Shown here: positions 41,488 through 64,000 of the stretch, piece by piece | Layout: every line of letters starts with the position of its first letter | Numbering within the stretch: position 1 is the stretch's first letter | Virus record (IMG/VR): IMGVR_UViG_3300043078_000170 | Source: a virus | Lineage: Duplodnaviria; Caudoviricetes | Length of the DNA stretch: 64,000 nt | Reading direction: 5' to 3' (one strand) | Program-made: the position numbers and the translations under genes | The notes under the pieces: model-generated | Seen by the model: only the letters and a program-made list of their open reading frames with translations | Told to the model about the DNA's origin: nothing | The model's database searches: none

Positions 41488-41548
41488 AATTTTATTACTC
41501 CTTTAATAAAAAATATTTTTTGTAGTTTATCAATCTAACTACACTATA

Positions 41549-41558
41549 ATAATATATA
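41549..41558 (-). promoter_or_regulatory. early-type phage promoter TATATATTAT
   Basis: upstream of Hef-like nuclease. Confidence 0.7.
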
Positions 41559-41605
41559 GTTATAGTTGGTTTTAAAATTTTTTAATTTATAGTTGGTATA
41601 AATTT

Positions 41606-42712: not shown

Positions 42713-42763
42713 CTCCTATTTAGTATTTAAATAATAGTTTTCCAATTATAAAAAATAAAAATT

Positions 42764-42788
42764 CCCTAAGACTTAATAAGTCTTAGGG
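42764..42788 (-). terminator. terminator of RNAP beta gene
   Basis: CCCTAAGACTT/AAGTCTTAGGG. Confidence 0.8.
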
Positions 42789-42794
42789 ATTTAT

Positions 42795-45700
42795 TTAAGA
42801 TTGATATATATCTTTTATTTGACGTTTTAATTCTATTAAAGCTTTCGAAGCGTAACCGTCAATAAAGATGTCTAGAGTCATACGGCTGTTTATACTTAAA
42901 GGACTTAATATAGCTTCTACTGGTTCTTCTGGTCTATACTCAGAATATGGTTCTTCACCTTTTTCTAAAACCTTTGAAACAATAGTTTTAAGAGCCGTTC
43001 CGTATATAATTTTATCGCCTATACCTAACTCTTGGTAATATTCTATAAAGAATTCAAACATTACACCATCTATTACATCTTCACCTTTAATTTTATTTTC
43101 AGTTTGTTTTTCAATAATAGGAGCATTTAAAGAATCATAACCTGTTCCTTTTATTTTTTCTATAATAGCTTTTCTAGATTTTTTTGCATTAATATAAGAT
43201 TTAATTACTTTTTGTAAACTTTCTGAATATTCTTCAATATCATTAGTATAATAAATATTTACTTTAGTAACTACACCTGTATATTTACACTTTAATTCAT
43301 TTTTAGCCATCTCGGCAATATTGGCTGCAAATTCATCACCAATTTTACCTAAGATATCATTCATAGATTCATCATTAAATGAATTTTCAAAGATTAATAA
43401 AGGTTCATTAGTTTTAATATTTTGACCTTCTTTAGCTACAAAACTTACTGTAGCATTTTTATCAAGAATCTTTGTCTTTCTCATAGTAACTTTAGTAGCT
43501 AAGCCTTCAGATACTTTATCAGTAACAATAGATGAGTCTTCAAGAGTAAAATCTGCTGAAGCAATAGCTACTTTAGTAGTTCTACCCATACAATATATAA
43601 TATCATCTTTTTTACCATTACCAACAAAGAAATTAGGATTCTTTGCTATTACAGCACCTTTATTGAATTTTTCTCCAGGTGTATAAAGCATTTCAAATTG
43701 CTGTGAGTTATAAAAACCACCATTACTATTGTTGGTTTCAACTATATCTAAATCAATTAAATCTTGTTTACCAGATTTATATTTAAGAATAGCTACTTTA
43801 TTTTTCATATCAACAGATTCTACTACACCATCTTCTTTTGCTTTAAATGCAAATTCATCAGAAATCATATAAGGAGCAGTTTTTTCCAATCCAGAACTAA
43901 TTAATGGTGGTGTCTGACCCAATACTGATACAATATGTTTCTGCTGTACAGATTGCATAGAAATACGAGGAGCATCTGAGTGTGTAGTTGTTGATGGATT
44001 CATTAATTCTGAGAAGTCATATTGAGTTGTAGAGCCATTTCCTTTAGCATTACTTGGATCTACAAAACCATATATATTAGTAATTTTAGGATTATAAGTT
44101 AATTGTCTAACAATACCAACCTGATTTCCTTCAGGAGTGTTAAGACTAATTAAATTCTTCATATTTTCATTATAACCACGAGTTCTTGTAGTGTAAGCTT
44201 CCATTTTAATAATTGGACTATATCTTCATCACTAAATGATGCCTTCCATTTCGGGTAAACCATAAAACCCTACTCTACTCGCTTCGTGTAAATATTTCAA
44301 TTTACCTTATTTTTAACTAGTTTATACTAGTATATTAGCTTTCGATAGTCTCTGAACTCATATCCTATCTTAGTAGGATACTTCGCTGCATCGATTGGAC
44401 TTAAAACTTAATCTTGTTACTATACCTAAGTCTGTTAAACTTCGCCACTAATTATATTACTATCTTAGTTTAGTAATTAAGTTCGTTTAGTCTTTCCTGC
44501 AATTAGGAAGGTTTATTTTTACAATGTCAACAAAGCTTACTTGTTTAATATTATTTATTATAATTATAAATTTCATAATATTTATTTTTATTATACATAA
44601 TGTCATCTTCACTATCATAAAATAACATATTGTATTTATTAATAATAGCTAAAACATCTTCTTCTTCAGCTATATATTTTATTAAATTTTTAATTTCATT
44701 TAGATTTAATTTATATGGAATTCTAAGTAAATTTATTTTATTATTTTGACAATATTCATTTTTAACTAAATCATTTTTACGAGTATTTTCAAATTTATTT
44801 ATTTTTCCACTTGAAAAAGAATTTTTATCAAAATGTTGTTGTCCATCATACTCAATTAATAAATTATATTCTTCTAAATAAAAATCAAATCTTAATTTAA
44901 ATTTTTTACCTTTTAGATCATCATAAGATTTTTCCTTTGTAAATTTTATTTTATTTTCATTTAAAAGATTTTCAATAAATATTGAATTTTTTGAATTATT
45001 ATAATCTATTTCACAAGGACATCTTTCTCCTTTATAAATAAAATTCTCAGGATAAATCATATATTCACTTTTACATTTTTCATGATAAGATTTTACTTTA
45101 GTATGCATTGTAGTAAATTTACCAATAATTTTATATGAAGGATCTAATTCATTTATTTTATTAACAAACTCTTCATGAGACATTTGGTATTTACCAGAAC
45201 AATAAGGACAACCAAAATATTTTTCTGGATATTTATTAGTCTTAACATTTCTTATTAAAATATGTGGTTCAGCTTTAAAATTTTTGTCGCATACATTGCA
45301 TTTAAAAGTAGTTTTTGAATGCGTATTTTTAAAATCTCCTATTAATGTTAATTTACCATTAGTTAATAATTTTAATTTATCTTCTACATTTTTCTTTGAT
45401 TTACTTATATCTGATTGTCTTCTACACTTAGGACATAAATCTTCTAAAAAACGTTTTCTTACTCTTTCTCTAGTAAATTCATTAGGAAAAGTTTCAAAAG
45501 TATTTCCACATTTAATGTGTTTAATAGTACATTTTGTTTGTCCTGATTCAAAGTTAATTAATTTAAATTTATTTCCATATAAATTTAATATATTTTCTTG
45601 AAATTTTTCTTTGGTTAATTTTGGATTACCCATAATACTAACAACTCCTTTAAATTTATTAAAGGATTGTTAGGAATCAATTTATTTTTAAATTTATGGT

Positions 45701-48700
45701 TTTAAGAATTTTTATTGACATTGATCCCAGCAAGCCCCTTCATTGAAGCAGTGCCCATTCTCTCTAACAATTATTACTAATTGGACTATATCATCTTCTA
45801 TAATAATTTATAGAAGCCTTGCACTTCGGACATATTATATCCTACTCTACTCACTTCGTGTAAATATTTCAATTTACCTTATTTTTAACTAGTTTATACT
45901 AGTATATTAGCTTTCGATAGTCTCTGAACGTTCTTCATTTTATTATGAAGCTTCGCTGCTAGATTTCCCATTATTACAATACTTAGATTTTCATCATATA
46001 TCAATTTAATTATTTTTTCCGTCTTTCGACTGCATTCACACTTATCTTTACAGATTATGTTGTAGCTAATTAAATATTAGGGTTTACAAGCAATTCACAA
46101 GGTTATCATACATTATTACTAATATATGAGAGCTAATTACTCAAGAGATGGGTTTAAACTTGAATAAGATTCAATTGTTTTTAATTCCATTAATTTCTTA
46201 GTTAGAATATCTGGATCAACAGTTATCTTGACTGGGTTTTTAGCATGTTTAGAGTCTTTATAATGCTTAAATGAATCAGCCAATACTTTATAAAGCATAG
46301 CAGGTACTTGTTCTGCACCACGAATTCTAAAATTATTTACATCAGTTGGTTCAGAGAAAGAAATATCTTCTAATAATGTATTAGCATATAATAAAACATC
46401 ATAAACATTAGTAGGTAAATTTAATTCTTCCAGTATATCTTTAGTAATAGGATCTATTAATAAAGAAATTGAGTTATGAAATCCCTTTGCAGCATTTCTT
46501 GAATTAAATGCATCACCAAAATAATCAATATAAGGATCTGGTGAATTCATATCTGCAAACACTATCTCAGAACAGTTCATTTCTAATAAACCTGAAAGAA
46601 GCATACTGTTTCTTATCTTAGAAGTATCATAATAAAGATAACCATCTTTAAATTTAATTTTACCTAAATCATCTTGTACGCTTAAAGATCTATTGGTAGT
46701 TTCAAAAGTATACATGACTTTATATCTATCTAATAAATTTAATAATCCTAATTCATATCCTAATAAAACAGCTAATGGAAGTGTTTTATTATTAATTTCC
46801 ATTCTAGAATATGTTAATTTAGTATTAGTTTTAATTTTAGCAGAAGTAATATCTTTAACCTTTTCAGTTGTATTATTATAAACTAATTCAACAATCCATG
46901 AAGATAAAGTAATATCTAATGGCTCATATTTACTACCATTATATAAATAAATCTTTTTATCAATAATATTTGATAAAATTAATTTACTTTTATCTTTAGT
47001 ATACCCTACCATGAAATATTCTTTTTTATCAAAAGTTGCTTTAACAGCAATTTTTTCATTATATAGAGGTTTCTTAATATCCATAATATCTTGGATTTCT
47101 TGTTGATTAAAAATAAATATATAGTTTTCAATATTTAAACTATATAAATAAGATGAAATATCATTATATTCAGAACTTACAGTATATTTACCATTATTCT
47201 TTAATGAATTACCAAATTTAAAATCAAAAGTAGAACCTTGTTTTTTATATTTTAAAAGATTTTGCTTAGTAAATAAAGATTTTAAATAAGTAAGCTTTTC
47301 ACTAAATTTCTGTCCAAATCTTGTTATAAAGTGCTTATTATAGTTTGTAGTAATTTGAACTCTATCTGGTTCTAATTTAACAATTGGTAAAAAAACTATC
47401 TGTTTCATAATTACCTTTTTAGAACCATTTACATACATAAATTTTCCTTCTTTAATTTCTGGCATATTTACTTTAAATTTATGTGTAACATTAGTATCAT
47501 CTTTAAATTCTACTTCAAGGAGTTGTTGCTTGTTCATATCAGTATTATTAGATTTTAAATTAATCTTATTAACATATACACCAATATCATTATCATCATT
47601 AAATGATTTAAGAACTTTTGCAACATCTTTATTAAACTTTTTTTCCATATAAGTATCATCATAATCTTTTAATGTACTTGTAAGGATTTCTTTATTAGTA
47701 ATATCTTTAATATTACCATCAGATATTTCTTTAGTATCTATTTTTTTATTTTCATAATTTTCTTTAAGATCTTTTAAAGAAACATCATTAAACATAATTT
47801 TTTCTTGTTGTATTTTTAATTGTTCTGCATTTTTTCTACGATCCCCATCTAATTTATCCTGCTGAACTTTTATTAAAGTATCTTTAAAAGCTTTATCATT
47901 AGTCATTAATTCCATCATTTGTTCTTCAGTCATATCAGTATCTTGATATTCATCAACAACTTCTTCAATTTTTTTATCTACTTCAGAAATATTGTCATCA
48001 TCTTCATTAACAGAAATACCAATTTCTTCAGCCATTTTTTCTTTAATATTATTTTTAGTAATTTCTTTTTCATCTGCTACAACATTCTTTGAATTAACTT
48101 TTTCTATAAAATTACTTGAAGGAGTATTATTAGATACTTCATTTGTTTCAATACCTTCTTCAGATTTTATAACTTCTTCTAATTCATCAGAACTTAATAA
48201 TAAATGATTAATTCTAATATTGAATTTTTGTTTATTTTTATAAAAATCATCATCTACTGTAAATTTAAAGAATGTTTTATTCTTAGCAGATAAGAATATA
48301 AATTGTACTCCTTTAAAATACTCTAAGAAATAGTCAACTCTTTTCTTAATTGCAGTTACAAAATAATAGAGAAAACTTGTATTATCAGTAGCATCCATTC
48401 CATCTACATTAAATACAATAGCTTTATAATCATATTTAAATTCATTATATTTAACATTAATTTCATCAAAGAAATCTTTCATTTTTACTAAAGGACTCTT
48501 TTTAGTAGACTCTTGATTAATTAATAAATAAGGTGTCATATCATAAAATAAATTAAGATTTTTATAGCTACTTATATTTTGTCTACAAAGTAAATTATAA
48601 TTTACTTTTTCTAAGAACTCTTTATAATGATTTGACTGATTAACCATTTTTCTTATTTTTTTATTATCTGAAACTAATAATCTTTCTCTATAATAGCTTT

Positions 48701-48872
48701 TATAATAAGCTGGCATAAATATATTTGAATTAATAGTCTCTATAAAATTTTCACTAGTTTTACCAATATGTAGAATTAATTGATTCTTTCTTAATTCTTT
48801 ATTCTCACTTGATAAATTTTTAATAGGCTTCTTTATAAGTTTATAATCTTTATATTTATCTAAAACTATCAT
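42795..48872 (-). CDS. phage multisubunit RNA polymerase beta-like subunit, three exons (48872-46140, 45767-45714, 44201-42795; 1397 aa), probably the virion RNAP large beta part
   Basis: GKFMYVNGSKKVIMKQ, joined LNPSLE|LERMGTASMKGLAGINVN|EAYT, TPEGNQVG, HSDAPRISM, EDS, GDK, LSPLSINSRMT correspond in order to RpoB motifs. Confidence 0.88.
44269..44357. repeat. 89-nt direct repeat copy A (intron 2 core)
   Basis: 88/89 identical to 45841-45929. Confidence 0.95.
44551..45633 (-). CDS. intron-encoded Zn-repeat Vsr-like homing endonuclease
   Basis: KHIKCG..CPKC repeats; RFDFYL..LIEYDGQQHF. Confidence 0.85.
   Translation of the reverse strand: MGNPKLTKEKFQENILNLYGNKFKLINFESGQTKCTIKHIKCGNTFETFPNEFTRERVRKRFLEDLCPKCRRQSDISKSKKNVEDKLKLLTNGKLTLIGDFKNTHSKTTFKCNVCDKNFKAEPHILIRNVKTNKYPEKYFGCPYCSGKYQMSHEEFVNKINELDPSYKIIGKFTTMHTKVKSYHEKCKSEYMIYPENFIYKGERCPCEIDYNNSKNSIFIENLLNENKIKFTKEKSYDDLKGKKFKLRFDFYLEEYNLLIEYDGQQHFDKNSFSSGKINKFENTRKNDLVKNEYCQNNKINLLRIPYKLNLNEIKNLIKYIAEEEDVLAIINKYNMLFYDSEDDIMYNKNKYYEIYNYNK
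45638..45673 (-). promoter_or_regulatory. RBS-sequestering hairpin containing a late promoter (45671-45660)
   Basis: CTAACAATCCTTTA pairs with TAAAGGAGTTGTTAG; 5' arm reads AACA-ATCCTT-TA. Confidence 0.8.
45768..46139 (-). mobile_element. group I intron 1 (about 372 nt, ORF-less) in RNAP beta gene
   Basis: P1 GAGU/GCUC, P2 with GTAA loop, AGCAGCGAAG, AGAGACTA, GATATAGTCC; junction ambiguous by 1 nt. Confidence 0.85.
45841..45929. repeat. 89-nt direct repeat copy B (intron 1 core)
   Basis: 88/89 identical to 44269-44357. Confidence 0.95.
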
Positions 48873-51564: not shown

Positions 51565-54500
51565 ATGGCTGGTTATAAATCTAGTAAAGAATTGTTAGAC
51601 AAAGGAAAAAACAATTTAAAAGAAATGTCTGGACAAAATAAAGATTTAAATGAAACTATCGCTAGTTATTCTGAAGAGGAAACAAGATTAAATGCTCCTA
51701 CAAGTTCTAGAATGCAAGCAATAGCTGTTAGTGAAAAATTTATAAGTTCATTACAAGAAACTTCATCTTTAATAGAACAAACTAATTCTAGTTTAGTTGG
51801 TTTTAAAAGTGCTTTAGAAGGTGTTGCTTCACAAGCTACAACAGCTACAAATTGTTTATTAGCTTCTAGCTTAGTAAGCTTAACTCAAATTAATAGTGTA
51901 TTAAGTGCTTTTAGAGCAGATTTCTTAATAAATAGCTCTGGTGGAAAAGCTGATGGTACAGGTTATTATGATAAAAATCTTTTAACACAATCTTTAAGAG
52001 ATATTAAAATACAAGATAGAGCAGTATTATCAATATTAAAATATGTAAATAAAGCTGCTAATTATGCTAATAAATCTTCAAATACTGTTAGAAGCCAACT
52101 TGGTAATAATACTATGGCTAAAGATGATGATGATGAATCAAATGGTATTATGGATAAACTACTTGGTGGTCTAACTCAAGCAAAAGGTCTTGCAGGATTA
52201 GGAGCATTTCTACAATTAGCTCCAGGAAAAGGTAAAGTAGGTAAAGCTTTAAATAAAATAGGCGGTAAAGCTGCTAATTTTGCACAAGCTGATACATCTA
52301 GTATAGGTGGATTACTTGAATCATTAATGTCTGATAAACAAAAAGCACAAATACTTGATCCTTTAAAATCTCTTGGTATGGATTTAGGTAATAAAAATGA
52401 CCCTTTAAGCCAAATGCTTGGAGATTTTATGAAAAAGAATGGTCTTTCTAAATCTAAAAAAGAAAAAGAAAAAGACCCTAAATTAGTAATGACATCATTA
52501 GCTCCTTTTGCAGATGATATTAAAGATATGGTTGAAGTAAAAGTAAAAGCTATGCATGCTAGACCAACTTCAATACCTGATTATGCAACTCCTGTATGGG
52601 TTGTTAATAGTGAAGAACAAACAGACTATGTAAAAAATAAAGATAAAACTAAAGATAAAGAATTAACTAATAAAAGAATTGATGAAATATTCCAAGGTGT
52701 TGCCAATAATACTAAAGATAAATTTGGTAATGATTTATTAACTGCTAACTACGGAGAAAATGGTGTTACATATTCTGGTGTATTAGCTGATAAATATAGT
52801 AAAGGTAAAAAAGCTGTTAATGCTAGAAATGAATTAAATGATAAACAAAAAGCATCACAGAAAAAAGTTTATGACAGAAACCATGAAGAATCTAGCTGGA
52901 TAGATGAAAATGGTAAAATACAAAAAGGTGGAGGAGATTTTAAACAAGCAGCTGAAGAATTTAGTAAAAGTAGAGGTGCTGCTGATAACTCTGGTATTTT
53001 AGGTGCAGCAGGTAGTTTACTAAGTGGTGATACTGAAGGAGCTTTGAATGTAGCATTACAAAGTATAATGAGCGGTGATGGTATCTCTGGTGCTTTTGGT
53101 TATGGTAAAGGTTTATTTAATTTAGGAAAATCTGCTTTTGGTGGCATTAAAGGTTCACATAAAGGTGGTAAAAAGAAAGGAACTGGTAGTAAACCATATT
53201 TAGTACAAGTTCATGATAATGAAAGAATTCTTGGACCAGATAATGTAGCTGAACAAACTGCAATAAATGATACATCTAAAATACTCGGTATGACAATTGG
53301 TATGTTAAACTATGGTATTTCATTAACACAAATGAAAAATCAGTTATTTATTAAATATGTCAATAAAGAGAAATTTTCTCCTGAAGAATTACAAACTAAT
53401 AATGAATTATTAGGTGCAGATGCTATTGCACAAATAGGTAAAGTATCTGATGCTTCTGAATATTTAAGAACTATTTCAGATTTAAAACAAAAATTATCTG
53501 GTAAGAAACAAGATAGACAACTTGCAGAAAAACTTGATGATGGAAAACAAGAAAAAAAGAAATCTTTAAAAGATATAGTTAAAGAAAAATTAAAAGATGC
53601 TGAAAAAAAATTAAAAGATAAAGTTCAAGACTTCTTAGGTCTAAAAGAAGAAGAGGAGAAAAAAGATGAAGAAGATAAAGAGAAAAAAGTAGATGAGAAA
53701 AAAGATGAAATAGATCAACAATCTGATGCAGAAGTCTCTGAATATCAAGAAGAAAAAGCACAAGAAGTAGAAGATCAAAAAGAAGAAGTTGAAAAAAATG
53801 CACAAGCACAAGTTGCTGCAAACCAAGAAAAAATAGATCAACAAGTAGAAGATCAAGAAAAAGCACAAGAACAAGAAGGACAAGCACAAGTTGCTGCAAA
53901 CCAAGAAAGAATAAATCAAGATGTTAAGCAAAAAATTGAAGAAGATAATGAAAATGCTGAAGAAAGAAAGAAAATAATTGATAAATATGAAAATAAAATT
54001 AATGAAGTTGAGAAAAAAAGTAAAATGAAAGCTTTAAAAATAAAAATTAAAGGAACTAAAAAAGCATTAAAAGAAAAAATGAAAGGTGTTAAAGAAGCTT
54101 TTAATCTTTCAATGTTAGCTAATATTGATTTAAGTAATCTTAGTATTGATGGCATAAAAGAAATAATAAAAGATAAAATAAATGATATTAAAAGAAGTTT
54201 AATAAATAAATTAAAAGCAAAAGCTAAAATTATTCTTAAAAGTTTAACAAAGAAAAATCTTATAGAAACATTAAAAACTGAAAAGACTAATTTACTTGAA
54301 CGTATTAAAGGTATGGCTCATAATGCATCCGATATTATAGAAACTATTGGTACTGGTATGGGTGCAGCAGTAGATGCTTTAGAAGCAGTTCCTATAGCAG
54401 GTCCAGCCTTAAAATTAGCAGCAGGTATTGCAGCAGGCACAGCAGTTGCAGGAATTGGTTTAGCAATTAAAAAAGCTATTGATAAGGGTAAAGAAGCTAA

Positions 54501-57500
54501 TGTAAATGCAGATAAAGAAACTAAAAAATTTGAAAAATCAGCGGATAAAGAAAAAAAGAAAGCAGAAAAAGAACAAGAGAAAAAAGATAAAGAAAAAGAA
54601 AAAGAAGAAAATTCTAAAGCTAAAGCTTCAACAACTCAAGAAAAAGAAAAAGATGATAAAGATATAGATAAAACTAAAGATGAATTAGATAAATTTAAAA
54701 CTGATGATGAAAAAAATGGAAAAGCTAAACCTCATAAAAAAGGTGGTTTATTAGGTGCTTTGCTTGGTGGACCAAAAAATGATTTATTACATTATTTAAA
54801 TAAAAATCAAATAAAAGCTTTAGAAACAGGTTCTAAAAGCAAATTTGCTAATTTAATGCTAAAAGATCCTAAAAAAGCAGCAAATATTATATTTATGCTT
54901 AATGGTGGACCAATGCTTTTAGGGTTTAAAGATACTAAAACAGAAGATTTAAATAATCTTGAGAGTGTTACAGCTACCAATTCTAATTCAAACTCTAGTT
55001 CTAGTAGTAAAAATACTATTTGGTCTAAATTAAAAAATAAACTTAGTCAAAAGAAATTACTTTCTGATGATTTAAGTGATGAAGGATATTCTCAGAATAT
55101 TGAAACTGCTGCTTTACAATATGAACAAACTAAAAATAGTGCTAATATAATTTCTGCTTTTGCTAGTGGATTAGGTTTTGCAAAATTAGAAGATGACTCA
55201 GGAACTTCACTATTTACAACAACTATTAGAAAAACAGCACAGCAAGAAGCTTTAACTAAAAACTTAGGAACAGCAACTGCTGCTTCTACAACTTCAACTG
55301 GTACAACTGCTGCTTCTACAACTTCAACTGATGATGATAGTAGCTCTTCAGACAATCGATTTAATGGTAGTAAATATATTGGCTATGATGAGGATGGTAC
55401 TTGGAGTAATAGTACTACTAATAGTGATATTGATAGTAGTGGTTATTTTTCTAAAAGTAATTCTTCATCGTCAAAAACTTTAGTTACAAAAATATTAAAT
55501 AATAACTGGCTTAAATATAAAAATGATAATAATATAACTGATACTACAACAACTAATGGTAGTTCTTATCCTAGAAAATTTTTAAATTCTGAATATGATA
55601 AAATGTATACTGCATTTATTAGTGGTGTTCCTTTTAGTGGAACAACTTCTAAAAATTATATGCATTCTAAATTAGCAAGTTCTATTAGTGAATCAGATGC
55701 TTGGACTGTTCCAGATTCTATTAAAAACTCAGATACAGAAAAAAATGCTGTAAGAGATTATATAAATAAAAAATCTGGAGTTAAATACACTAAATATGGT
55801 TTAGGTATTTCTGGGTTATATGGATTAGGTGATGAAAATGATGAAGACTTCTTAGATGCTTCAGGATATGCTCTTTCTAAAGGTTACAAAGAAAAAGATG
55901 GTGGTACTTACCCTCAATTCTTTACAGACTATCTTAAAAAAGATAATATCGAAGTAGAAAATGCTGGAAGTGTTAATAAAATAAAAAATAGATTAGCTAG
56001 TGGTAGTCCAGTAATTCTTATGGGTAAAGATGAATCAGAAAATGGTACAACTCCTTATGGAGCAGAACCTCACTATGTAGTAGCTACTGGATATGACGGT
56101 AAAAATATTAGAGTAGTTGACTCTGAAAGTACTAATGATTATGATATTTATAATGCCGATAAGGTATTAAGTCATTCATCAATTAAATTAGGAACTACTA
56201 ATAGTAAAAAAGGTAAAGGAAGAAAAGTTAGAAGTAAATCTGGAAGAGCTAGAAAAACTTCAAAAAATAAAAAATATGATAATAAAAGAACAGTTGGTGG
56301 TTCTAGAACATATAGTACAACTATAATAAAATCTGCTTCTGATTACGGTACTTCAAGTTCTTCAAAAATTTCTAATAATTATTCAAAACAAAATAATTCT
56401 TCTAGAAGAGTTAGTAATAATAGAAGAAAGAGTTATTTAAAATCAGGGAAAGGAAAATATGGAAGAGGTTATGTTGAACAAATTAATGCAAATCCAGAAT
56501 TATTAAAAGGTGCTCAAGATGGTTGGACTATGTATGGTATCTTAGCATCAGTAACATTAGCACAGTCTATTATTGAATCTGGTTTTGGTACTTCTAATTT
56601 AGCAAAGAATTATCATAACTGGTTTGGACATACTGCTGGATTCGCTAGTGATAAATATATGACTGGTACATATCAAGGATCACATGAATGGGCTGTATAT
56701 ACTTCTGATGGCGACTGCTTTAGAGACCATGCTTATGTATTATCAGGTCAATCAGGTAACACTAGATACATGGCTGCAGTAGGTGAAGCAGATCCTAGAG
56801 CTTCTATTACAGCAATTGAAAATGGTGGTTATTGTGAAGGTGATCCAAATTCTTATATTGATAAAGTAATGAATATTATTGATAGTTATAATTTAACTCA
56901 ATTCGATGTAGGTGAATATAATGGTGTTGCAGCAGGCAGTGGAGCAGTAGTTTATTCTAAGACTTGTTGGACTGGTGACTCACGTACAGAACAAATGGCT
57001 AATTACTTTAGTGATTTAGAAGTATACGCTACAAAAGGTGGACAAACTATTGATTACTTTAATCAACATTATTCAGAAATTTCTGATAAAGAAGGTTATA
57101 ATATTTTCTGTTGGTATGGTGTAAATGGTGCAACAGCATCTGGAGCACAAAAGACAGCAGAAGCTTATAATAAATTAGCTACAGATTTAAAAGGTAAATC
57201 ACAAGTATTCGCTGGTACTATTGGTCATTGTCCTAATGGTACAGGAAGTGGTAAAGTAGAAGGCGGTGCAGGTCAATCTATTGAAACACAAAATGAAGGT
57301 GTTGTTACATTCAATACTGAATTATTACAGAATCTTTCAAGTGATATTATAGTTATTGATACTTATACTTATATTAAAAGTCTTGAAGATAGTATGGGTG
57401 CAGAAGCCATGACTACAGATAACTTACATTATACTAAAGAATGTAGCCAGAAAATTAGAGAATATGTAAATCAACAAATTCAAGCAGCTTCGGCAACAAC

Positions 57501-58155
57501 TACTACGGCTACTTCAGATGCAGGTGTTGCTATTGGTGATTTATATGTAACATTAGAAGGTTATGTTGATGCTAAAGATATTTTATCACAGTATGCTTCT
57601 GGAGATGATATATGGGATGGTGTTTCATCTTATAATTATGCAGATAGTTCTGATTATACATCTACTGCTGCTGCAAATTATGATCCAACAAGTAGTAGTG
57701 AAGATGACGAAACATCTACCGCAACTCCAACAGCTTCTAGCAGTTCTTCATCTACACCAACATCTAGTAGTACACCTTCTTCTAGTGATAGCACTTCTAG
57801 TTCTACTAGTAGTAGTACACCTTCTTCTAGCGGTAGTACTTCTGGTTCTACTAATAATCCTACTACAACAACTACTACTACAACTCCAACAGTATCTACG
57901 CCAACTGATAGCAATACATCTACAGAAATATATCAAAGTAATGGTACATTATATGTAGTAAATAATATTGAATATGGAATTAAAGCTAATATAGCAGATA
58001 TTCTAAAAGAATTTAATGAATTAAATGATATACAAGATGATAGTTTAGATGTATTAAATGTAATATATCAAAAATTATTAAAACGTAATGGAAAAAGTAA
58101 AAATACAAAAATTGATGGTTATGACTATTCTTTAAAGTATAGAAGATTCGTATAA
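51565..58155 (+). CDS. giant tail/tape-measure-like protein with C39-like His half, GH73 glucosaminidase and SGNH hydrolase domains
   Basis: PVILMG..PHYVVATGYD..VVDS; TLAQSIIESGFG..NWFG; TGDSRT, GVNG, DNLHY. Confidence 0.8.
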   Translation: MAGYKSSKELLDKGKNNLKEMSGQNKDLNETIASYSEEETRLNAPTSSRMQAIAVSEKFISSLQETSSLIEQTNSSLVGFKSALEGVASQATTATNCLLASSLVSLTQINSVLSAFRADFLINSSGGKADGTGYYDKNLLTQSLRDIKIQDRAVLSILKYVNKAANYANKSSNTVRSQLGNNTMAKDDDDESNGIMDKLLGGLTQAKGLAGLGAFLQLAPGKGKVGKALNKIGGKAANFAQADTSSIGGLLESLMSDKQKAQILDPLKSLGMDLGNKNDPLSQMLGDFMKKNGLSKSKKEKEKDPKLVMTSLAPFADDIKDMVEVKVKAMHARPTSIPDYATPVWVVNSEEQTDYVKNKDKTKDKELTNKRIDEIFQGVANNTKDKFGNDLLTANYGENGVTYSGVLADKYSKGKKAVNARNELNDKQKASQKKVYDRNHEESSWIDENGKIQKGGGDFKQAAEEFSKSRGAADNSGILGAAGSLLSGDTEGALNVALQSIMSGDGISGAFGYGKGLFNLGKSAFGGIKGSHKGGKKKGTGSKPYLVQVHDNERILGPDNVAEQTAINDTSKILGMTIGMLNYGISLTQMKNQLFIKYVNKEKFSPEELQTNNELLGADAIAQIGKVSDASEYLRTISDLKQKLSGKKQDRQLAEKLDDGKQEKKKSLKDIVKEKLKDAEKKLKDKVQDFLGLKEEEEKKDEEDKEKKVDEKKDEIDQQSDAEVSEYQEEKAQEVEDQKEEVEKNAQAQVAANQEKIDQQVEDQEKAQEQEGQAQVAANQERINQDVKQKIEEDNENAEERKKIIDKYENKINEVEKKSKMKALKIKIKGTKKALKEKMKGVKEAFNLSMLANIDLSNLSIDGIKEIIKDKINDIKRSLINKLKAKAKIILKSLTKKNLIETLKTEKTNLLERIKGMAHNASDIIETIGTGMGAAVDALEAVPIAGPALKLAAGIAAGTAVAGIGLAIKKAIDKGKEANVNADKETKKFEKSADKEKKKAEKEQEKKDKEKEKEENSKAKASTTQEKEKDDKDIDKTKDELDKFKTDDEKNGKAKPHKKGGLLGALLGGPKNDLLHYLNKNQIKALETGSKSKFANLMLKDPKKAANIIFMLNGGPMLLGFKDTKTEDLNNLESVTATNSNSNSSSSSKNTIWSKLKNKLSQKKLLSDDLSDEGYSQNIETAALQYEQTKNSANIISAFASGLGFAKLEDDSGTSLFTTTIRKTAQQEALTKNLGTATAASTTSTGTTAASTTSTDDDSSSSDNRFNGSKYIGYDEDGTWSNSTTNSDIDSSGYFSKSNSSSSKTLVTKILNNNWLKYKNDNNITDTTTTNGSSYPRKFLNSEYDKMYTAFISGVPFSGTTSKNYMHSKLASSISESDAWTVPDSIKNSDTEKNAVRDYINKKSGVKYTKYGLGISGLYGLGDENDEDFLDASGYALSKGYKEKDGGTYPQFFTDYLKKDNIEVENAGSVNKIKNRLASGSPVILMGKDESENGTTPYGAEPHYVVATGYDGKNIRVVDSESTNDYDIYNADKVLSHSSIKLGTTNSKKGKGRKVRSKSGRARKTSKNKKYDNKRTVGGSRTYSTTIIKSASDYGTSSSSKISNNYSKQNNSSRRVSNNRRKSYLKSGKGKYGRGYVEQINANPELLKGAQDGWTMYGILASVTLAQSIIESGFGTSNLAKNYHNWFGHTAGFASDKYMTGTYQGSHEWAVYTSDGDCFRDHAYVLSGQSGNTRYMAAVGEADPRASITAIENGGYCEGDPNSYIDKVMNIIDSYNLTQFDVGEYNGVAAGSGAVVYSKTCWTGDSRTEQMANYFSDLEVYATKGGQTIDYFNQHYSEISDKEGYNIFCWYGVNGATASGAQKTAEAYNKLATDLKGKSQVFAGTIGHCPNGTGSGKVEGGAGQSIETQNEGVVTFNTELLQNLSSDIIVIDTYTYIKSLEDSMGAEAMTTDNLHYTKECSQKIREYVNQQIQAASATTTTATSDAGVAIGDLYVTLEGYVDAKDILSQYASGDDIWDGVSSYNYADSSDYTSTAAANYDPTSSSEDDETSTATPTASSSSSSTPTSSSTPSSSDSTSSSTSSSTPSSSGSTSGSTNNPTTTTTTTTPTVSTPTDSNTSTEIYQSNGTLYVVNNIEYGIKANIADILKEFNELNDIQDDSLDVLNVIYQKLLKRNGKSKNTKIDGYDYSLKYRRFV
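52240..52352 (+). repeat. 113-nt exact repeat shared by the two giant paralogs (other copy 58888-59000)
   Basis: base-by-base comparison. Confidence 0.9.
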
Positions 58156-58179
58156 TTATTGAGATAGGAGTGATAAGAT

Positions 58180-61100
58180 ATGGCAAATATGAAATCTTCA
58201 AAACAGACAGCTAATCAAGCTACTAACAATCTTGATCCAAATATGAGTAAAATAGCTGAGCAAACAAGTGCTATAGCATCAAGCTTATCTCAACAAAGTA
58301 GTTCGATTCAAGCTTTAAAAGATTCTATATCTAGAAAAGAAGCTAGTGATGAAAAATCTAATAAACAAATTACTTCATCATTACAAAATTCTGATAAATA
58401 TATACTTTCTATTAATACTAATTTAAAAAATATGAATCAAACAATAAGCTCTATGTCAAGTGTTGTATCTAATATGACAATGAATAGTAGCGCTACAGTA
58501 TCGTTGTTAGGTTCTATTCAAACAAGTTTAGTACAAATTACAAGCGTATTAGCAGCTTTTAGGTCAGATTATTTATTAGTAAATAGTGGTAATAAAGCAG
58601 ATGGTACAGGTTATTATGATATGAACCTCTTAAAAGAAATTGGTAGTTCTTTAAGAGGTGTTAAAAGTGCTGAATTACAAAGACAAATTAATTCAATTAT
58701 GAAAGCTGCTAATTATGCTAATATGGCTTCTAATTCCGTTAGAAGTAAGCTTGGTAATAAAAATATGGCTAAAGATGGTGATGAACCAACAGGTGCTATA
58801 GACAAATTATTAGGCGGTTTAACACAAGCAAAAGGTCTTGCAGGTTTAGGAGCATTTTTACAATTAGCTCCAGGAAAAGGAAAGGTTGGTAAAGCTTTAA
58901 ATAAAATAGGCGGTAAAGCTGCTAATTTTGCACAAGCTGATACATCTAGTATAGGTGGATTACTTGAATCATTAATGTCTGATAAACAAAAAGCACAAAT
59001 TTTAGATCCTTTAAAAAGTTTAGGAATGGACTTAAAAGGTAAAAATGATCCTTTAAGCCAAATACTTGCTTCTTTTATGGATAAAAATGGATTATCAAAA
59101 GATAAAAAAGAAAAAGAAAAAGACCCTAATCTAGTTTGGTCGGCTTTAGCTCCTTTTGCAGATGATATTAAAGATATGGTTGAAATGTCTTATGAAGGAG
59201 TTAAAAAAAGACCTAAAGCTATTCCTATATATGCTACACCTGTATGGGTGGTTAATAGTAAAGATCAAAATAATTATGTAGATCATTCTAAAGGAACTAA
59301 TGAAAAAGATTTACTTAATAAAAGAATAGATGAAATATTCCAAGGTGTTGCTAATAATACTAAAGATAAATTTGGTAATGATTTATTAGTTGATAATGGT
59401 GGAACATATTCTGGTGTATTAGCTGATAGATATAGCAAAGGTAAAAAAGCAATTAATGCTAGAAATGAATTAAATGATAAAAGAAATGCTGCTAGTAAAA
59501 AAGTTTATAATAGAAACCATGAAGACTCTAGCTGGATAGATGAAAATGGTAAAATACAAAAAGGTGGAGGAGATTTTAAACAAGCAGCTGAAGAATTTAG
59601 TGGAATTGCAGGAAAAAAATACGGTCCAAACGGTGAAATTTCTGGCGGTTCTGGTATTTTAGGTGCTGCAGGTAGTTTACTAAGTGGTGATACTGAAGGA
59701 GCTTTGAATGCTGCTTTACAAAGTATAATGGAAGGTAACGGAGTCTCTGGCGCTTTTGGTTATGGTAAAGGTTTATTTAAAATGGGAAAAGCTGCTTTTG
59801 GTGGTATTAAAGGTTCACATAAAGGTGGTAAAAAAGGTAAAGGTGTAGATCCACGTAAAAAAAATGATAAAAACTCTTATGAAAATAGAGATGAAACTAC
59901 TAATGAGCATGAAGTAACACCTATTACTGCAGAAACTACTATTTTAAATGAAAAAGATACTAAAGAAGCTAAAACTAATAGAGATATTTTAACAGGACAA
60001 ATTACTGTAGCAGGTGCTATCAATGCTTTAGTAGATATGACTACACAAGAAAATATTTATTTAAGTCAAGCTGTAAATAATGGTAAAGTTGATCCAACTA
60101 AAGTTAAAAAATATCCAAGTTCTTTTGATAGTTTAATAAAATTAGCATCTTCTTTAAAAATAGATAAAGCAGGTTTAAAAGCTATTAGTCAATTTAAAAA
60201 AGTTTCTGATTTAACTAAAGTTATTAAAAAACCTAAAAATAAAACTATGACAACTTCTGAATATTTTTATGGCAAAACTCCTGAAGAATTAGAAGAAGAA
60301 AATAATGAAAAAGAAGGAGAAGAAAAGAAAGAAACTCCACTTGAAAAACTTATGAATAAAATTAATGACAAGAAAAAAGATATTACTGATAAATTAAAGG
60401 ATAAAGTTACAGGTAAATTAAAAGATAAAGTTATGCCTAAAGCTAAAGAATTAGGAAAAAAAGTATTAAATAAAGTTGAGAATAAGTTTGGAATGGCAGC
60501 AGGATCTGTAGGTAAAAAAATTAAATCTATGAAAGATATGAAAAAAAATTTTGAGGATAAAGTAGATAAAAAAGTAGATGCTGCTCTTGATAAAGGTATG
60601 GATTTAGCTGCAAAAGGTGCTAAAAAAGTTGGTGGTGCTTTAGTAGGTCTTGGTAAAAAAATGGCTAATAAAATGAAAAAGAAAAAAGACCCAAATGCCG
60701 AACTTGAGAAAATGTATGAAGACCAATTAAAAGCTAAACGAGGTGTTGGTGAAAAAGAAATAGAAGCAGCAGAATATGCAGTTGGTGCAGAAAAGGATGC
60801 AGCAGAAGATGCAGCAGCTAAAGAAAAAGAAACGGCACAGGAAATATCGGATGAAGAAAAGAAGGCTGCAGAAGAAAGAGAAAAAACTAGAAAAGAAAAT
60901 GAAGAAAAGCTTAAAGAAAAAAGAGAACAAGCTCAAGAACAAGAAATTGCACATGAACAAGCTGCTGCAGATGCTGAACTAGCAGTTAAAACAACAACTG
61001 CTGAAACTGAAGGAGCAGTTCAAGAAGCTGCAGCTACTGGCGAATCTGGTTTTAGTATTACTGGTGCTATTAAAAATGCTATAACAAAAGTTTCTGGTTT

Positions 61101-64000
61101 GCCATTGCCTGCTAAAATAGCATTAGGTGCTGCTGGTGTTGCTGCAGTAGGTGCTTTAGGAGCAAAGTTAATTAAGAAAATTAAAAAAATGGCATCAGGC
61201 AAAGGTGGAAAAGGTTCTGGAGATTCTGGTGGCAGTGAAGCAAAAGCTTCAGTTAGTAAAGATGCTACAAAAGCTGCTAAAAAAGAACAAAAGAAACAAG
61301 AAAAAGAACAAAAGAAACAAGAAAGAAAAGAAAAAAGAGAAAAAGCTAAAAAGAAAATAAAAAGAGGTGCAAGATCTTTTCTTAATAGATTAACTGGTGG
61401 ATTAACTGCTGCAAAAGTTTATGTAGATGAAAATGGTGATGTTTTAAAATCTAAAGGTGACCAACCAATCATGATGTTAGATGATAATGGTGATGAAACA
61501 GACCAAACTTTAAATGTTAAAGATAGTGATGGTAAAAAGCAGTTTCTTAAAAGATTAATGAAAAGAGAATTTAAAATAGATAAAGGTAAAGCTCTTAAAC
61601 AAACTTTAAATAAAATTAAAAATAAAGCTAAAGAAAAAATAGAAGCTGCTAAAGAAAAAATATCTGAAGGTAAAGAAAATGCTAAATCTTCTTTAAAAAA
61701 AGGTCTTGGAATTGCAGGAAAAATAGGTCTTGGATTAATAGGTGGTCCAGGTGCTTTAATTGCAGGCGGTTTAGCTAAAAAAGCTATTGGTGGATTAACT
61801 AAAAAGAAAAATGAAAAAGCCGATAAATTAAATCAATTATTATTAATGTCATCTTCTGCTTATTTATTCATGGATTCTAAACTTCAAGAACAATTAGAAA
61901 ATATTGAAAATAGTGATTTTGGTAAATTAATAAATGAAAATCCACAACAAGCTTCTAGTTTATTATTTAGTACTGCTGCAAGTAGTCTTAATAGTATAAT
62001 TAGTGGAGTATCAGATGTTACAAGTGATTTATCGTCTGTTGTAAGTAGCTTAGTCGATAAGGTTACTGGTGATGATGAAGAAACTAAAGCTAAGTCTGCA
62101 TATTCTTCAGACTTATCGGATGGCTCTTTCAGTGAAAGTGCTACAGTTGCTTATGCACAGATGAATGAACGTAATAATAATAATGAAGTATTAAACTCTT
62201 TTGCTAAAAGTATAGTCGGAACAGCTTCTACAGCTAGTGATAATGGTAATGCAATGACTACTTCTAAATTAGTTAATTCAGAAAGAAAAAATAATGCTGT
62301 AAAAATTGGTGTAGTAGATGGTGTAGCAGGAAGTTCAGCAACAGCTTCTAGCGGTAATGGTGGTGCAGGTGTCTTAGCTGCAACAGCTCAAGTCTGTGTA
62401 GCTTATAATAACGCAGGTATTACTGGTAAAGAAGGTGACTATAATCAAGATGGTTTAACTCTTGATATTAATGTTGGTGGACAAACTATTAATACTAGAC
62501 CTGACTGTACTGGTTTGATTGATGCTGTACTTGAATATATGGGTTATGATTCTGAAAAAATGAATTCTCTTAAATTTAAAGAATGCTCAGGTATTAAAGA
62601 CTCTTCTGGTAATATTTCTACAGACTGGACTCTTATTGATAGCCCTGAACTAACTGATATTCAAGCAGGCGATATTTGTATTGTAAATAGTAACGGTAAT
62701 CACCACGGTGAAATTGCTGCTGGTCCTATTGATGATAGTGGTACATTATATGGATTTAACTATGGTTGGGAAACAGGTATGAAAAGATCAAATGCTGCTG
62801 CAGCAGAAGCTTTAGCAGGCACTGATTATTTAACTGCTTGTATTAACAATAGTTCTACAATTAATGGGCATAAATATTATGACCGTATTATTAGATATAA
62901 TGTTGCTACAACTACTAACTCTAATTCATCTTCTTCTGCTTCTGTATCAGCAGGTATGTCCGCAGATACATTCTTTATTAATGATTTAGGATTAGATTCT
63001 TCTAATCCAACATCTAGAGGATTCTCTGCACATAAAGGTACTGACTATAGAGCAGCTTCTGGTACAGCAGTTCATACGCCAACAGGCGGTACTGTTGTTA
63101 AAGCTACTAAGGATCAAGCATCTATTTCATCATCTATGGGTAGATATGTAATAATTAAAGATAATGATGGTAACTATTGGAGATATATGCATTTTAGTGC
63201 TATACCTTCTGTTGCTACTGGAGATAGTTTAACACCTGGTCAGCTTATTGGTTATTCAGGTGGAGATACTAGTGACCCTTATAGAGGTGATTCTACTGGA
63301 GCACATCTTCACGTAGACTTATCATCATCAAGCACAGTTGATGGCAAGAATAATAATATGATGGATGTACAAAAATATACTTTAACTGGTAAAGGTAGAT
63401 CAAGTAATAATCATATTTATCAAAGAGATTATTCTAATTATATTTATAATACCGATAAAGACTCTGAATTACAAACATTAGGTGACTCTGGTTGTGGACC
63501 TGCTGCAGCAACTGCTGTTAAAAGATATTATGTCGGAAGAGGTCTTAAGAAGTATGGTGGAGATAAAGAAGATGATACAACTACAACTGATACAACAACA
63601 GCAACTGCTTCTGAAGATACAACTGATACAAATACTGCAACAGATAGTACAGCAGATGCATCTACAACACAAAAAACTGCAACTGTTGGTGAATCAGTAA
63701 CAGTTGTTGATGAGAAATTTAATCATACTTATGAATTAACTTTACAACAATGTCATATAGATGTATGGAATGGAATAAAAGCTGCAGGACTTACTGACGA
63801 AGCCGCTTGTGGTGTTTTAGGTAACTTTCTATCAGAATGTGGTAGTGGTGACTGGAATGAAGAAGTTGCTAAAGGTAAAACAGGTTATGGCGGTGGTCTT
63901 ATGCAATGGACACCTTATACTAAGCACCAAAATTGGTGTACTTCAAATGGTTATAGTGGTAAAGATACTACAATGGAAGCAAATATAGCTCATGTCGTTT
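58180..64000 (+). CDS. second giant paralog (over 1940 aa, runs off the window): NlpC/CHAP-like, M23 peptidase, C39-like Cys half, phage tail lysozyme
   Basis: SD AGGAG; frame open to window end; RPDCTGL..HHGEI; HKGTD..YMHF..STGAHLH; YQRD..GCGP; AACGVLGNFLSE..GLMQWT; N-terminal region homologous to 51565 gene. Confidence 0.85.
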   Translation, partial: MANMKSSKQTANQATNNLDPNMSKIAEQTSAIASSLSQQSSSIQALKDSISRKEASDEKSNKQITSSLQNSDKYILSINTNLKNMNQTISSMSSVVSNMTMNSSATVSLLGSIQTSLVQITSVLAAFRSDYLLVNSGNKADGTGYYDMNLLKEIGSSLRGVKSAELQRQINSIMKAANYANMASNSVRSKLGNKNMAKDGDEPTGAIDKLLGGLTQAKGLAGLGAFLQLAPGKGKVGKALNKIGGKAANFAQADTSSIGGLLESLMSDKQKAQILDPLKSLGMDLKGKNDPLSQILASFMDKNGLSKDKKEKEKDPNLVWSALAPFADDIKDMVEMSYEGVKKRPKAIPIYATPVWVVNSKDQNNYVDHSKGTNEKDLLNKRIDEIFQGVANNTKDKFGNDLLVDNGGTYSGVLADRYSKGKKAINARNELNDKRNAASKKVYNRNHEDSSWIDENGKIQKGGGDFKQAAEEFSGIAGKKYGPNGEISGGSGILGAAGSLLSGDTEGALNAALQSIMEGNGVSGAFGYGKGLFKMGKAAFGGIKGSHKGGKKGKGVDPRKKNDKNSYENRDETTNEHEVTPITAETTILNEKDTKEAKTNRDILTGQITVAGAINALVDMTTQENIYLSQAVNNGKVDPTKVKKYPSSFDSLIKLASSLKIDKAGLKAISQFKKVSDLTKVIKKPKNKTMTTSEYFYGKTPEELEEENNEKEGEEKKETPLEKLMNKINDKKKDITDKLKDKVTGKLKDKVMPKAKELGKKVLNKVENKFGMAAGSVGKKIKSMKDMKKNFEDKVDKKVDAALDKGMDLAAKGAKKVGGALVGLGKKMANKMKKKKDPNAELEKMYEDQLKAKRGVGEKEIEAAEYAVGAEKDAAEDAAAKEKETAQEISDEEKKAAEEREKTRKENEEKLKEKREQAQEQEIAHEQAAADAELAVKTTTAETEGAVQEAAATGESGFSITGAIKNAITKVSGLPLPAKIALGAAGVAAVGALGAKLIKKIKKMASGKGGKGSGDSGGSEAKASVSKDATKAAKKEQKKQEKEQKKQERKEKREKAKKKIKRGARSFLNRLTGGLTAAKVYVDENGDVLKSKGDQPIMMLDDNGDETDQTLNVKDSDGKKQFLKRLMKREFKIDKGKALKQTLNKIKNKAKEKIEAAKEKISEGKENAKSSLKKGLGIAGKIGLGLIGGPGALIAGGLAKKAIGGLTKKKNEKADKLNQLLLMSSSAYLFMDSKLQEQLENIENSDFGKLINENPQQASSLLFSTAASSLNSIISGVSDVTSDLSSVVSSLVDKVTGDDEETKAKSAYSSDLSDGSFSESATVAYAQMNERNNNNEVLNSFAKSIVGTASTASDNGNAMTTSKLVNSERKNNAVKIGVVDGVAGSSATASSGNGGAGVLAATAQVCVAYNNAGITGKEGDYNQDGLTLDINVGGQTINTRPDCTGLIDAVLEYMGYDSEKMNSLKFKECSGIKDSSGNISTDWTLIDSPELTDIQAGDICIVNSNGNHHGEIAAGPIDDSGTLYGFNYGWETGMKRSNAAAAEALAGTDYLTACINNSSTINGHKYYDRIIRYNVATTTNSNSSSSASVSAGMSADTFFINDLGLDSSNPTSRGFSAHKGTDYRAASGTAVHTPTGGTVVKATKDQASISSSMGRYVIIKDNDGNYWRYMHFSAIPSVATGDSLTPGQLIGYSGGDTSDPYRGDSTGAHLHVDLSSSSTVDGKNNNMMDVQKYTLTGKGRSSNNHIYQRDYSNYIYNTDKDSELQTLGDSGCGPAAATAVKRYYVGRGLKKYGGDKEDDTTTTDTTTATASEDTTDTNTATDSTADASTTQKTATVGESVTVVDEKFNHTYELTLQQCHIDVWNGIKAAGLTDEAACGVLGNFLSECGSGDWNEEVAKGKTGYGGGLMQWTPYTKHQNWCTSNGYSGKDTTMEANIAHVV

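Follow-up and report, generated by a model that had tools for sequence, protein, structure and literature searches.

Two complementary pieces of a papain-like C39_2-type peptidase domain in adjacent giant genes of a jumbo phage, and their possible assembly in trans

C39 double-glycine leader peptidases cut beside glycines, and the adenovirus protease is activated by pVIc, an 11-residue peptide that comes from another virion precursor. To our knowledge, few natural enzymes have their catalytic residues spread over proteins from separate genes, the textbook case being split inteins. The light chain of cathepsin B is made of its ~47 N-terminal residues. The active double-chain form of this enzyme combines a 5-kDa light chain with a 22-kDa heavy chain, and Gln23, Cys29, and His199 are its catalytic residues (PMC10386206, excerpt). 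Polyvalent proteins of phages and conjugative elements are giant multidomain proteins, delivered with the virion, whose other domains are proposed to be set free by a built-in peptidase (Iyer et al. 2017, PMC5512222, excerpt). Here we describe a stretch of 64,000 nucleotides (hereafter the window) of the tailed-virus record IMGVR_UViG_3300043078_000170 (IMG/VR; Duplodnaviria, Caudoviricetes), in which two neighbouring giant proteins, named paralog 1 and paralog 2, each carry one piece of a Peptidase_C39_2 papain-like domain. In the literature searches, no publication came up that describes a C39-like domain in tail proteins of jumbo phages, or a papain-like, C39 or cysteine protease split between two polypeptides.

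The two genes are adjacent open reading frames (ORFs) of the plus strand, open over 2196 and 2331 codons. Their locations and those of the two pieces, which we call the body and the island, are the following:

51565..58155, plus strand: paralog 1, 2196 amino acids, a giant virion or tape-measure-like protein (from the ORF list and translation)
58180..63999, plus strand: paralog 2, cut at residue 1940 by the end of the window; 2331 amino acids in the virus record G001
55840..56187, plus strand: body, the C-terminal two thirds of the Peptidase_C39_2 domain (paralog 1 residues 1426-1541)
63382..63540, plus strand: island, the N-terminal third of the Peptidase_C39_2 domain, ~50 residues (paralog 2 residues 1735-1787)

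The body holds the catalytic His1503 (56071-56073) and Asp1519 (56119-56121), with the motifs PVILMG from residue 1482, HYVV from residue 1503 and VVDS at 1517-1520, and lacks the helix that bears Gln and Cys. The island has YQRD at 1747, Gln1748, Gln1765 (63472-63474) and Cys1772 (63493-63495), the last of which opens the helix GPAAATAVKRYY. The catalytic residues do not lie on one polypeptide, Gln and Cys being on paralog 2 and His and Asp on paralog 1. In a short-segment scan with Pfam Peptidase_C39_2 (PF13529, curated cut-off of 24 bits), the body matched positions 56-142 of the 143 of the profile (E-value 5.3e-9, 37.2 bits), above the cut-off, and the island matched positions 11-58 (E-value 0.039, 15 bits), below it. 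A family-specific profile, built from the domains of 29 intact relatives and used with Z set to 1e6 for the E-values of the island, matched paralog 1 at positions 57-174 (E-value 3e-38) and paralog 2 at positions 6-56 (E-value 1e-7). The match ran from positions 53-58 to 173-174 in nine of the ten paralog-1-type proteins (E-values 1e-36 to 1e-41); in the tenth, P0009, it started at position 15, but no Cys was present upstream. For the paralog-2-type, seven proteins were matched from positions 4-15 to 55-77 (E-values 1e-5 to 1e-9); P0003, which has the same island as P0002, was absent from these matches. In the alignment, paralog 1 and eight orthologues begin exactly at the second helix (F-L-N-A-S-x-Y-A-L) and paralog 2 ends exactly after the Cys helix. 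It is confirmed that the two pieces are exactly complementary parts of one Peptidase_C39_2 domain.

Neither G-C-G-P nor a match to the front part of the domain was found in paralog 1 with the motif and the family profile. The missing end of paralog 2 was taken from G001, a record of 134 kb (about half a genome) with 99% identity over the last 2 kb of the window, and neither Pfam nor the family profile found a His half in the full-length protein, a search which the initial annotation of the window had proposed. That annotation had described only the His/Asp half in paralog 1 and, in paralog 2, an island with the Cys half followed by a Thr-rich linker and a lysozyme, as the profile and Pfam matches bear out. 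Its motif coordinates all agree with the translations, and it was right about the presence of the Cys-helix motif; the spelling had to be corrected, since the helix reads GPAAATA and not GPAAAA. Two candidates for the missing parts were considered and rejected. In the downstream part of paralog 2, the peptide G-F-A-N-T-H-F-V of P0003 resembles the H-Y-V-V strand, but its His is Arg in two of seven orthologues and it gave no profile match. Upstream of the body, a replacement nucleophile was discarded given a mean pairwise identity of 0.09 in the 45 residues that precede it. As a separate observation, the peptide G-F-A-N-x-[HR]-[FY]-V is located after the last [YFW]-G-[RK]-G motif and before a Ser-rich tail in 7/7 paralog-2 orthologues, at L002:15105-15175 (paralog 2 residues ~2118-2140 in G001), beyond the end of the window.

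Several effector domains accompany the peptidase parts in each giant. Paralog 1 consists, in this order, of an N-terminal module, a coiled coil, a predicted membrane-like helix, the Cys-less body, a GH73 domain, an unassigned domain, and a C-terminal module, and paralog 2 carries an M23 domain, the island, and a lysozyme:

56512..56895, plus strand: GH73 glucosaminidase domain (paralog 1 residues 1650-1777; Pfam PF01832, E-value 2.7e-23)
63028..63324, plus strand: Peptidase_M23 domain (paralog 2 residues 1617-1715; Pfam PF01551, E-value 1.6e-16)
63562..63744, plus strand: Thr/Asp-rich linker (paralog 2 residues 1795-1855)
63760..63999, plus strand: start of Phage_lysozyme2, cut by the end of the window (Pfam PF18013, E-value 7e-13; complete in P0003 at residues 1857-1992)

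Conservation was calculated as the mean pairwise identity in 45-residue segments, among seven paralog-2 orthologues and nine paralog-1 orthologues. In each giant, the piece of the protease domain belongs to the best conserved stretches. For paralog 2 the island ranks second among the segments, with an identity of 0.72 vs 0.37 for the whole protein, and the M23 domain, the lysozyme and the linker showed values of 0.34, 0.44, and 0.25, respectively. The body contains the first and third best segments of paralog 1 (0.69 and 0.61 vs 0.25 overall); it follows the variable stretch mentioned above and precedes a linker with an identity of 0.07. At the level of residues, Q1748, Q1765, and C1772 are invariant in 15/15 aligned proteins, and H1503 and D1519 in 9/9 split-type orthologues. 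The same 9/9 orthologues keep a set of hydrophobic residues of the body, namely F1452 and the groove residues F1453, Y1456, L1457, I1462, I1484, Y1504, and V1506.

The relatives of both pieces were also studied. The search with the body region gave 81 proteins, 19 of which were inspected for motifs and 14 scanned with Pfam. Eight short relatives (P0006-P0013, 1555-2234 residues) lacked G-C-G-P and kept H-Y-[VI]-V, and the 11 long ones (3232-3820 residues) had G-C-G-P. By Pfam, the C39_2 domain was complete and contiguous in 10 of the 14 (from profile position 13 or earlier to at least position 141), usually followed by Phage_lysozyme2; two others (P0006 and P0013) had a partial domain, and for P0010 and P0023 none was reported at an E-value of up to 0.01. 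The island region retrieved seven proteins, six with only the island (P0086-P0091, one of them with G-C-A-P) and one with an intact domain. A census of the viral_contigs set revealed an intact domain in one giant ORF at 34/36 loci, 10 of which required inspection owing to variant motifs, and the split arrangement at the remaining two (L009 and L010). A scan of metagenomes for the split lineage gave seven loci, among which L048 covers the same contig range as L010, and L047, L049, and L051 end before one of the two positions. In all seven split-type loci that could be read at both positions (the window, L002, L009, L010, L045, L046, and L050, from separate assemblies), the gene with only the body comes directly before the gene with only the island. 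No intact domain was found in any locus of the split lineage. Beyond the body and the island, G001 has no further PF13529 match in its 134 kb, and in G002, the 305,865-bp record of L010 that CheckV rates as 100% complete, there is no intact copy, the body being the sole match at an E-value of up to 10. No second giant was found beside a single giant at the loci where the start of the latter lies at least 2.5 kb inside. Finally, tblastn searches of 50,697 phage records with paralog 1 and an intact domain revealed no cultured relative and gave only GH73 matches and seven uncultured or unannotated records.

The intact PF13529 domains occur in single tape-measure-like giants of 3100-5600 residues in related uncultured jumbo phages (for example, at L014-L016, L024, and L011) and are homologous to the two pieces. 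These giants share with the split lineage the glycine-rich tags at the domain borders that are described below, the neighbouring Phage_lysozyme2, M23, and GH73 domains and the genomic position; they differ in that a single chain, and not two gene products, bears all of Gln, Cys, His, and Asp, the Cys being placed ~75 residues before the PV[IV]LMG strand. The C39-like domain is constant across the relatives, and the wall-hydrolase modules (GH73, M23, NlpC/P60, and lysozymes) come and go. With regard to the origin of the split, the island is nearest to the intact clade of L024, L025, L028, and L014-L016 (53-62% identity), while the body is about equally near to several intact clades (42-53%, the best being L011). 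These different nearest relatives do not support a simple recent duplication of one domain. The split is most simply explained by a duplication with subsequent reciprocal loss, and recombination between lineages could also have given rise to it.

A structure model of the domain was made for the nearest relative that has it intact. In this model, with a predicted local distance difference test (pLDDT) of 91.7, the Cys opens helix 41-52, which is followed by a loop (53-59) and by the next helix (60-69). Therefore, the split falls in a surface loop. The Foldseek neighbours of this model were papain-like cysteine proteases with template modelling (TM) scores of 0.5-0.6, including a CdiA-CT toxin, a toxin/immunity pair, PeiR, AvrRpt2, ComA PEP, the Bacillus anthracis C39-like peptidase, and PCAT1. 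ComA PEP was also the best sequence match among solved structures, with a weak E-value of 0.1 and with Cys, His, and Asp aligned. The two halves, whose co-folding the initial annotation had suggested as a check, were modelled together (paralog 1 residues 1421-1548 and paralog 2 residues 1736-1797) in three runs and with three controls. The three runs scored 0.80, 0.72, and 0.73, with a median of 0.73, against 0.01 for the best control; the mark used for this comparison is attained by 116/157 solved complexes and by 2/215 mismatched pairs. The runs had at least 90% of their contacts in common, with a pLDDT of at least 64 for the partner, and the most confident contacts joined island residues 1774-1781 to body residues 1453, 1456, 1457, 1462, 1484, and 1504-1506, which are invariant groove residues. 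With an unrelated protein as chain 1, the island had a pLDDT of 31. In an AlphaFold2 (AF2) model of the island, linker, and lysozyme2, made with a three-row alignment, the island was unstructured (pLDDT 24-36) and the lysozyme had values of 70-88, which is weak evidence against the island being part of the lysozyme fold.

In addition to the protease pieces, the giants contain short glycine-rich tags. Those that flank the pieces and the GH73 domain are the following:

55795..55830, plus strand: two Y-G-L-G tags directly upstream of the body (paralog 1 residues 1411-1414 and 1419-1422); the orthologues have a tag of K-Y-G-x-G type there
56212..56223, plus strand: G-K-G-R just after the body (paralog 1 residues 1550-1553)
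56446..56469, plus strand: G-K-G-K-Y-G-R-G just before GH73 (paralog 1 residues 1628-1635)
63388..63399, plus strand: G-K-G-R directly upstream of the island (paralog 2 residues 1737-1740)
63535..63561, plus strand: G-R-G-L-K-K-Y-G-G directly after the island (paralog 2 residues 1786-1794); [YF]-G-[RK]-[AG] in the orthologues

The two giants have nine aromatic-G-x-G motifs, vs 2.0 +/- 1.4 in 1000 shuffles (maximum 8), and 14 G[KR]G motifs, vs 4.6 +/- 2.1 (maximum 13). Among 33 giant ORFs, aromatic-G-x-G was present 299 times in 123,431 residues (0.0024 per residue), in the context G-x-[GS]-[KR]-[FYW]-G-[RK]-G. The conservation of G-x-G motifs at the domain borders of homologues, on which the initial annotation had made its proposal depend, was found in most of the 30 distinct intact domains: a tag lies 20-60 residues upstream of the Cys, at the upstream border, in 27/30, and 125-175 residues downstream of it, at the downstream border, in 21/30, the background expectation being that a stretch of 41 residues holds a tag ~10% of the time. 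In 8/30 (L018, L023, L026, L031, L033, L035, L036, and L038) a tag, sometimes doubled, is placed 8-35 residues downstream of the Cys, within the loop where the split occurs. In the split lineage, both pieces are immediately preceded and followed by tags. If the tag were a cleavage site, cutting of the intact enzymes with a tag in the loop would yield the two chains for which the split lineage has separate genes.

The two giants also have a common N-terminal module:

51733..53172, plus strand: N-terminal module common to both paralogs (paralog 1 residues 57-536), with 72% identity over 480 residues by BLASTP

Its counterpart in paralog 2 is located at 58363-59787, and long stretches of it are identical or nearly so between the two giants. 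Outside this module the paralogs are unrelated by BLASTP, with the GKGKYGRG tag as the sole other similarity. This level of identity suggests either that both giants dock on a common partner or that the adjacent genes have undergone gene conversion.

Taking all this into account, we tentatively favour the reading that one papain-like (C39_2-type) peptidase is divided between adjacent giant virion genes, is rebuilt in trans, and cuts the tags. The common N-terminal module would bring the two giants together at the same place in the particle, where the Cys helix of paralog 2 would dock into the groove of the body of paralog 1 and the Gln-Cys-His-Asp site would be rebuilt, for which two-chain cathepsin B offers a precedent. 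With one complementary piece on each giant, the enzyme would probably be active only where the two proteins meet. The resulting enzyme would then cut the giants at the G-x-[GS]-[KR]-[FYW]-G-[RK]-G tags, including those at the borders of both pieces, so that the release of the wall-hydrolase modules would be coupled to hetero-assembly. Assembly in trans is likely: the trans-assembled discontinuous protease put forward in the initial annotation is backed by the indirect evidence of complementarity, intact relatives, co-occurrence, invariant residues, and the co-fold. The other part of that proposal, the self-processing release of hydrolases, did not fare as well, as self-cleavage at the tag is something that we only infer, and the cutting of tags is the weakest step of the mechanism. 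In its favour, the C39-like module is constant and the best conserved amid variable wall hydrolases, and the tags cluster on its borders. A stronger version, which we consider doubtful, would make this an obligate two-gene protease, in which a tag-bracketed peptide of ~50 residues must dock on a Cys-less body and hydrolase release is licensed only in particles with both giants; the delivery of the nucleophile in trans would act as an assembly checkpoint, fixed by reciprocal loss after duplication.

Several points weigh against the favoured reading. Cleavage, binding, and activity are predicted for a family that has no cultured member. The tag differs from the classical Gly-Gly at P2-P1 of the C39 leader peptidases, and the tags could be targets of a different enzyme (the M23 domain or a prohead protease, for example) or simply features of linkers. 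The different nearest relatives of island and body mean that a single simple duplication is not shown. As for the co-fold, it indicates compatibility with the papain fold and not binding, and it may reflect the fold memory of the model, because this fold is common among solved structures and both alignments held the same intact homologues. A serious rival holds that the pieces do reassemble in trans but that the substrate is a host peptidoglycan peptide, the whole being a lytic module of the tail, with the tags cut by something else or serving as punctuation of linkers. All the evidence for trans-assembly applies to it equally, and the domain sits among wall hydrolases of GH73, M23, lysozyme, and NlpC/P60 types. 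The N5 module of the mycobacteriophage endolysin LysA, which matches the B. anthracis C39-like peptidase, is listed as a putative cysteine protease (PMC3314691, Table 1), and a lysin A of Gordonia phage is described with a protease C39 domain (PMC12821328, excerpt). Because of such entries for endolysins, and because the pseudomurein endoisopeptidase PeiR (8z4h, TM 0.55) is among the fold neighbours, the substrate may be the wall rather than the giants themselves. However, a constant and most conserved module beside wall hydrolases that are swapped fits a housekeeping role better than a host-specific lytic one, and the tags at the borders and in the loop of the intact domains also speak for the giants as substrate. 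A wall substrate is an unlikely explanation, although one to be taken seriously.

It is also conceivable, if somewhat unlikely, that no reassembly takes place. The body would then serve, as a pseudo-protease, to bind a peptide or a partner protein, the island a docking or structural peptide, and their complementarity a by-product of which sub-structures survive alone. Phage tail proteins often contain enzyme folds that are conserved but have lost catalysis, and a pass in the co-fold can come from fold memory. Nevertheless, a pseudo-enzyme need not keep the Cys, both Gln, the His, and the Asp, all of them invariant across orthologues that are 26-50% identical, and the groove that would receive the missing helix is invariant as well. 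The island, unfolded beside its own lysozyme or an unrelated chain, reaches a pLDDT of 65-70 with the body, and the two genes always occur together in the loci that can be read. Finally, the pieces could be decaying remnants of a duplicated domain, or an artefact of assembly or frameshift. Domains often become pseudogenised through reciprocal loss once they have been duplicated, and the island alone remains below the Pfam cut-off; on the other hand, the arrangement recurs in seven loci from separate assemblies whose orthologues are down to 26-36% identical, with both pieces highly conserved and both frames open. This last explanation is very improbable.

With respect to a possible tape-measure role of the giants, the translations show great length, K/E-rich repeats, and hydrophobic helices, and the match to the PHROG 'tape measure' covers the M23 part only. 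Pfam revealed no ABC (ATP-binding cassette) transporter domain in either giant. The region after GH73 in paralog 1 (56920-57561) is conserved, with W-x-G-D-S-R-T and N-I-F-C-W motifs kept in the orthologues; it had no Pfam match at an E-value of up to 1 and could be an esterase-like module. Before the M23 domain of paralog 2, the region 62380-62979 shows a Cys...His-His pattern, which we take to be reminiscent of NlpC/P60 or CHAP enzymes, and it likewise had no Pfam match at an E-value of up to 1.

The window has a guanine plus cytosine (G+C) content of ~25%. Its gene set, which comprises split multisubunit RNA polymerase beta genes with HNH endonuclease ORFs between them, a GroEL-like chaperonin, topoisomerase II subunits, and virion structural proteins, is that of an AR9/phiKZ-type jumbo phage. 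The HNH ORFs are probably intron- or intein-associated. The genes with given positions are:

46137-48872 and 42795-44204, minus strand: RNA polymerase beta-type genes, within 39763-48872
39763-41487, 41606-42712, and 44551-45633, minus strand: three HNH/homing-endonuclease ORFs interleaved with the RNA polymerase beta-type genes
19647-21308: phage-encoded GroEL-like chaperonin (PHROG 5725, E-value 5e-122)

Genes near the giants have PHROG matches that include virion structural proteins, and no family match was found for those upstream of the giants. G001 contains a third giant ORF of 3502 residues (L003:3229-13737, minus strand), the first ~600 residues of which match a 'virion structural protein' PHROG; no PF13529 match was found in it.

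If the pieces reassemble, this locus would be a clean natural case in which reciprocal loss affected parts of a domain and so locked two paralogs into mutual dependence. It could also represent an assembly-coupled switch that releases lytic enzymes from a phage tail, and it would offer a split point tested by evolution for the engineering of two-part cysteine proteases. Moreover, the tag and the protease give a concrete handle on the unproven idea that the giant tail proteins of jumbo phages are polyproteins.

Compared with the known systems, the two giants resemble the polyvalent proteins in being giant multidomain proteins with effector domains and a peptidase (PMC5512222, excerpt). The processing peptidases of the latter are zincin-like, assemblin-like, DD, and LonC, with no split peptidase described and neither 'C39' nor 'papain-like' present in the main text (PMC5512222). 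The likeness to two-chain cathepsin B would be that of an active papain-like enzyme formed by two chains, a small N-terminal one with Gln and Cys and a large one with His (PMC10386206, excerpt). However, the chains of cathepsin B come from one gene, are nicked after folding, and are held by a disulfide, whereas here the pieces belong to different genes, lie within giant proteins and must find each other. With the C39 leader peptidases of ABC exporters (ComA PEP, 3k8u/5xe8, and PCAT1), the domain, as modelled in an intact relative, shares the papain-like fold, at a TM of ~0.56, and the order Gln...Cys(GP)...H-Y...D-P. The likeness is at the level of the superfamily, since here there is neither an ABC transporter nor a leader-peptide context, the tag is aromatic-G-[RK]-G and not G-G, and the leader peptidases are single-chain; their own family, PF03412, gave sub-threshold matches in two relatives only. 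The adenovirus protease is similar in another respect, as it is a viral cysteine protease that is active only with a peptide from a different structural protein, which ties processing to the assembly of the particle. In that system pVIc is a cofactor without a catalytic residue, whereas in the giants described here the peptide would supply the nucleophile itself.

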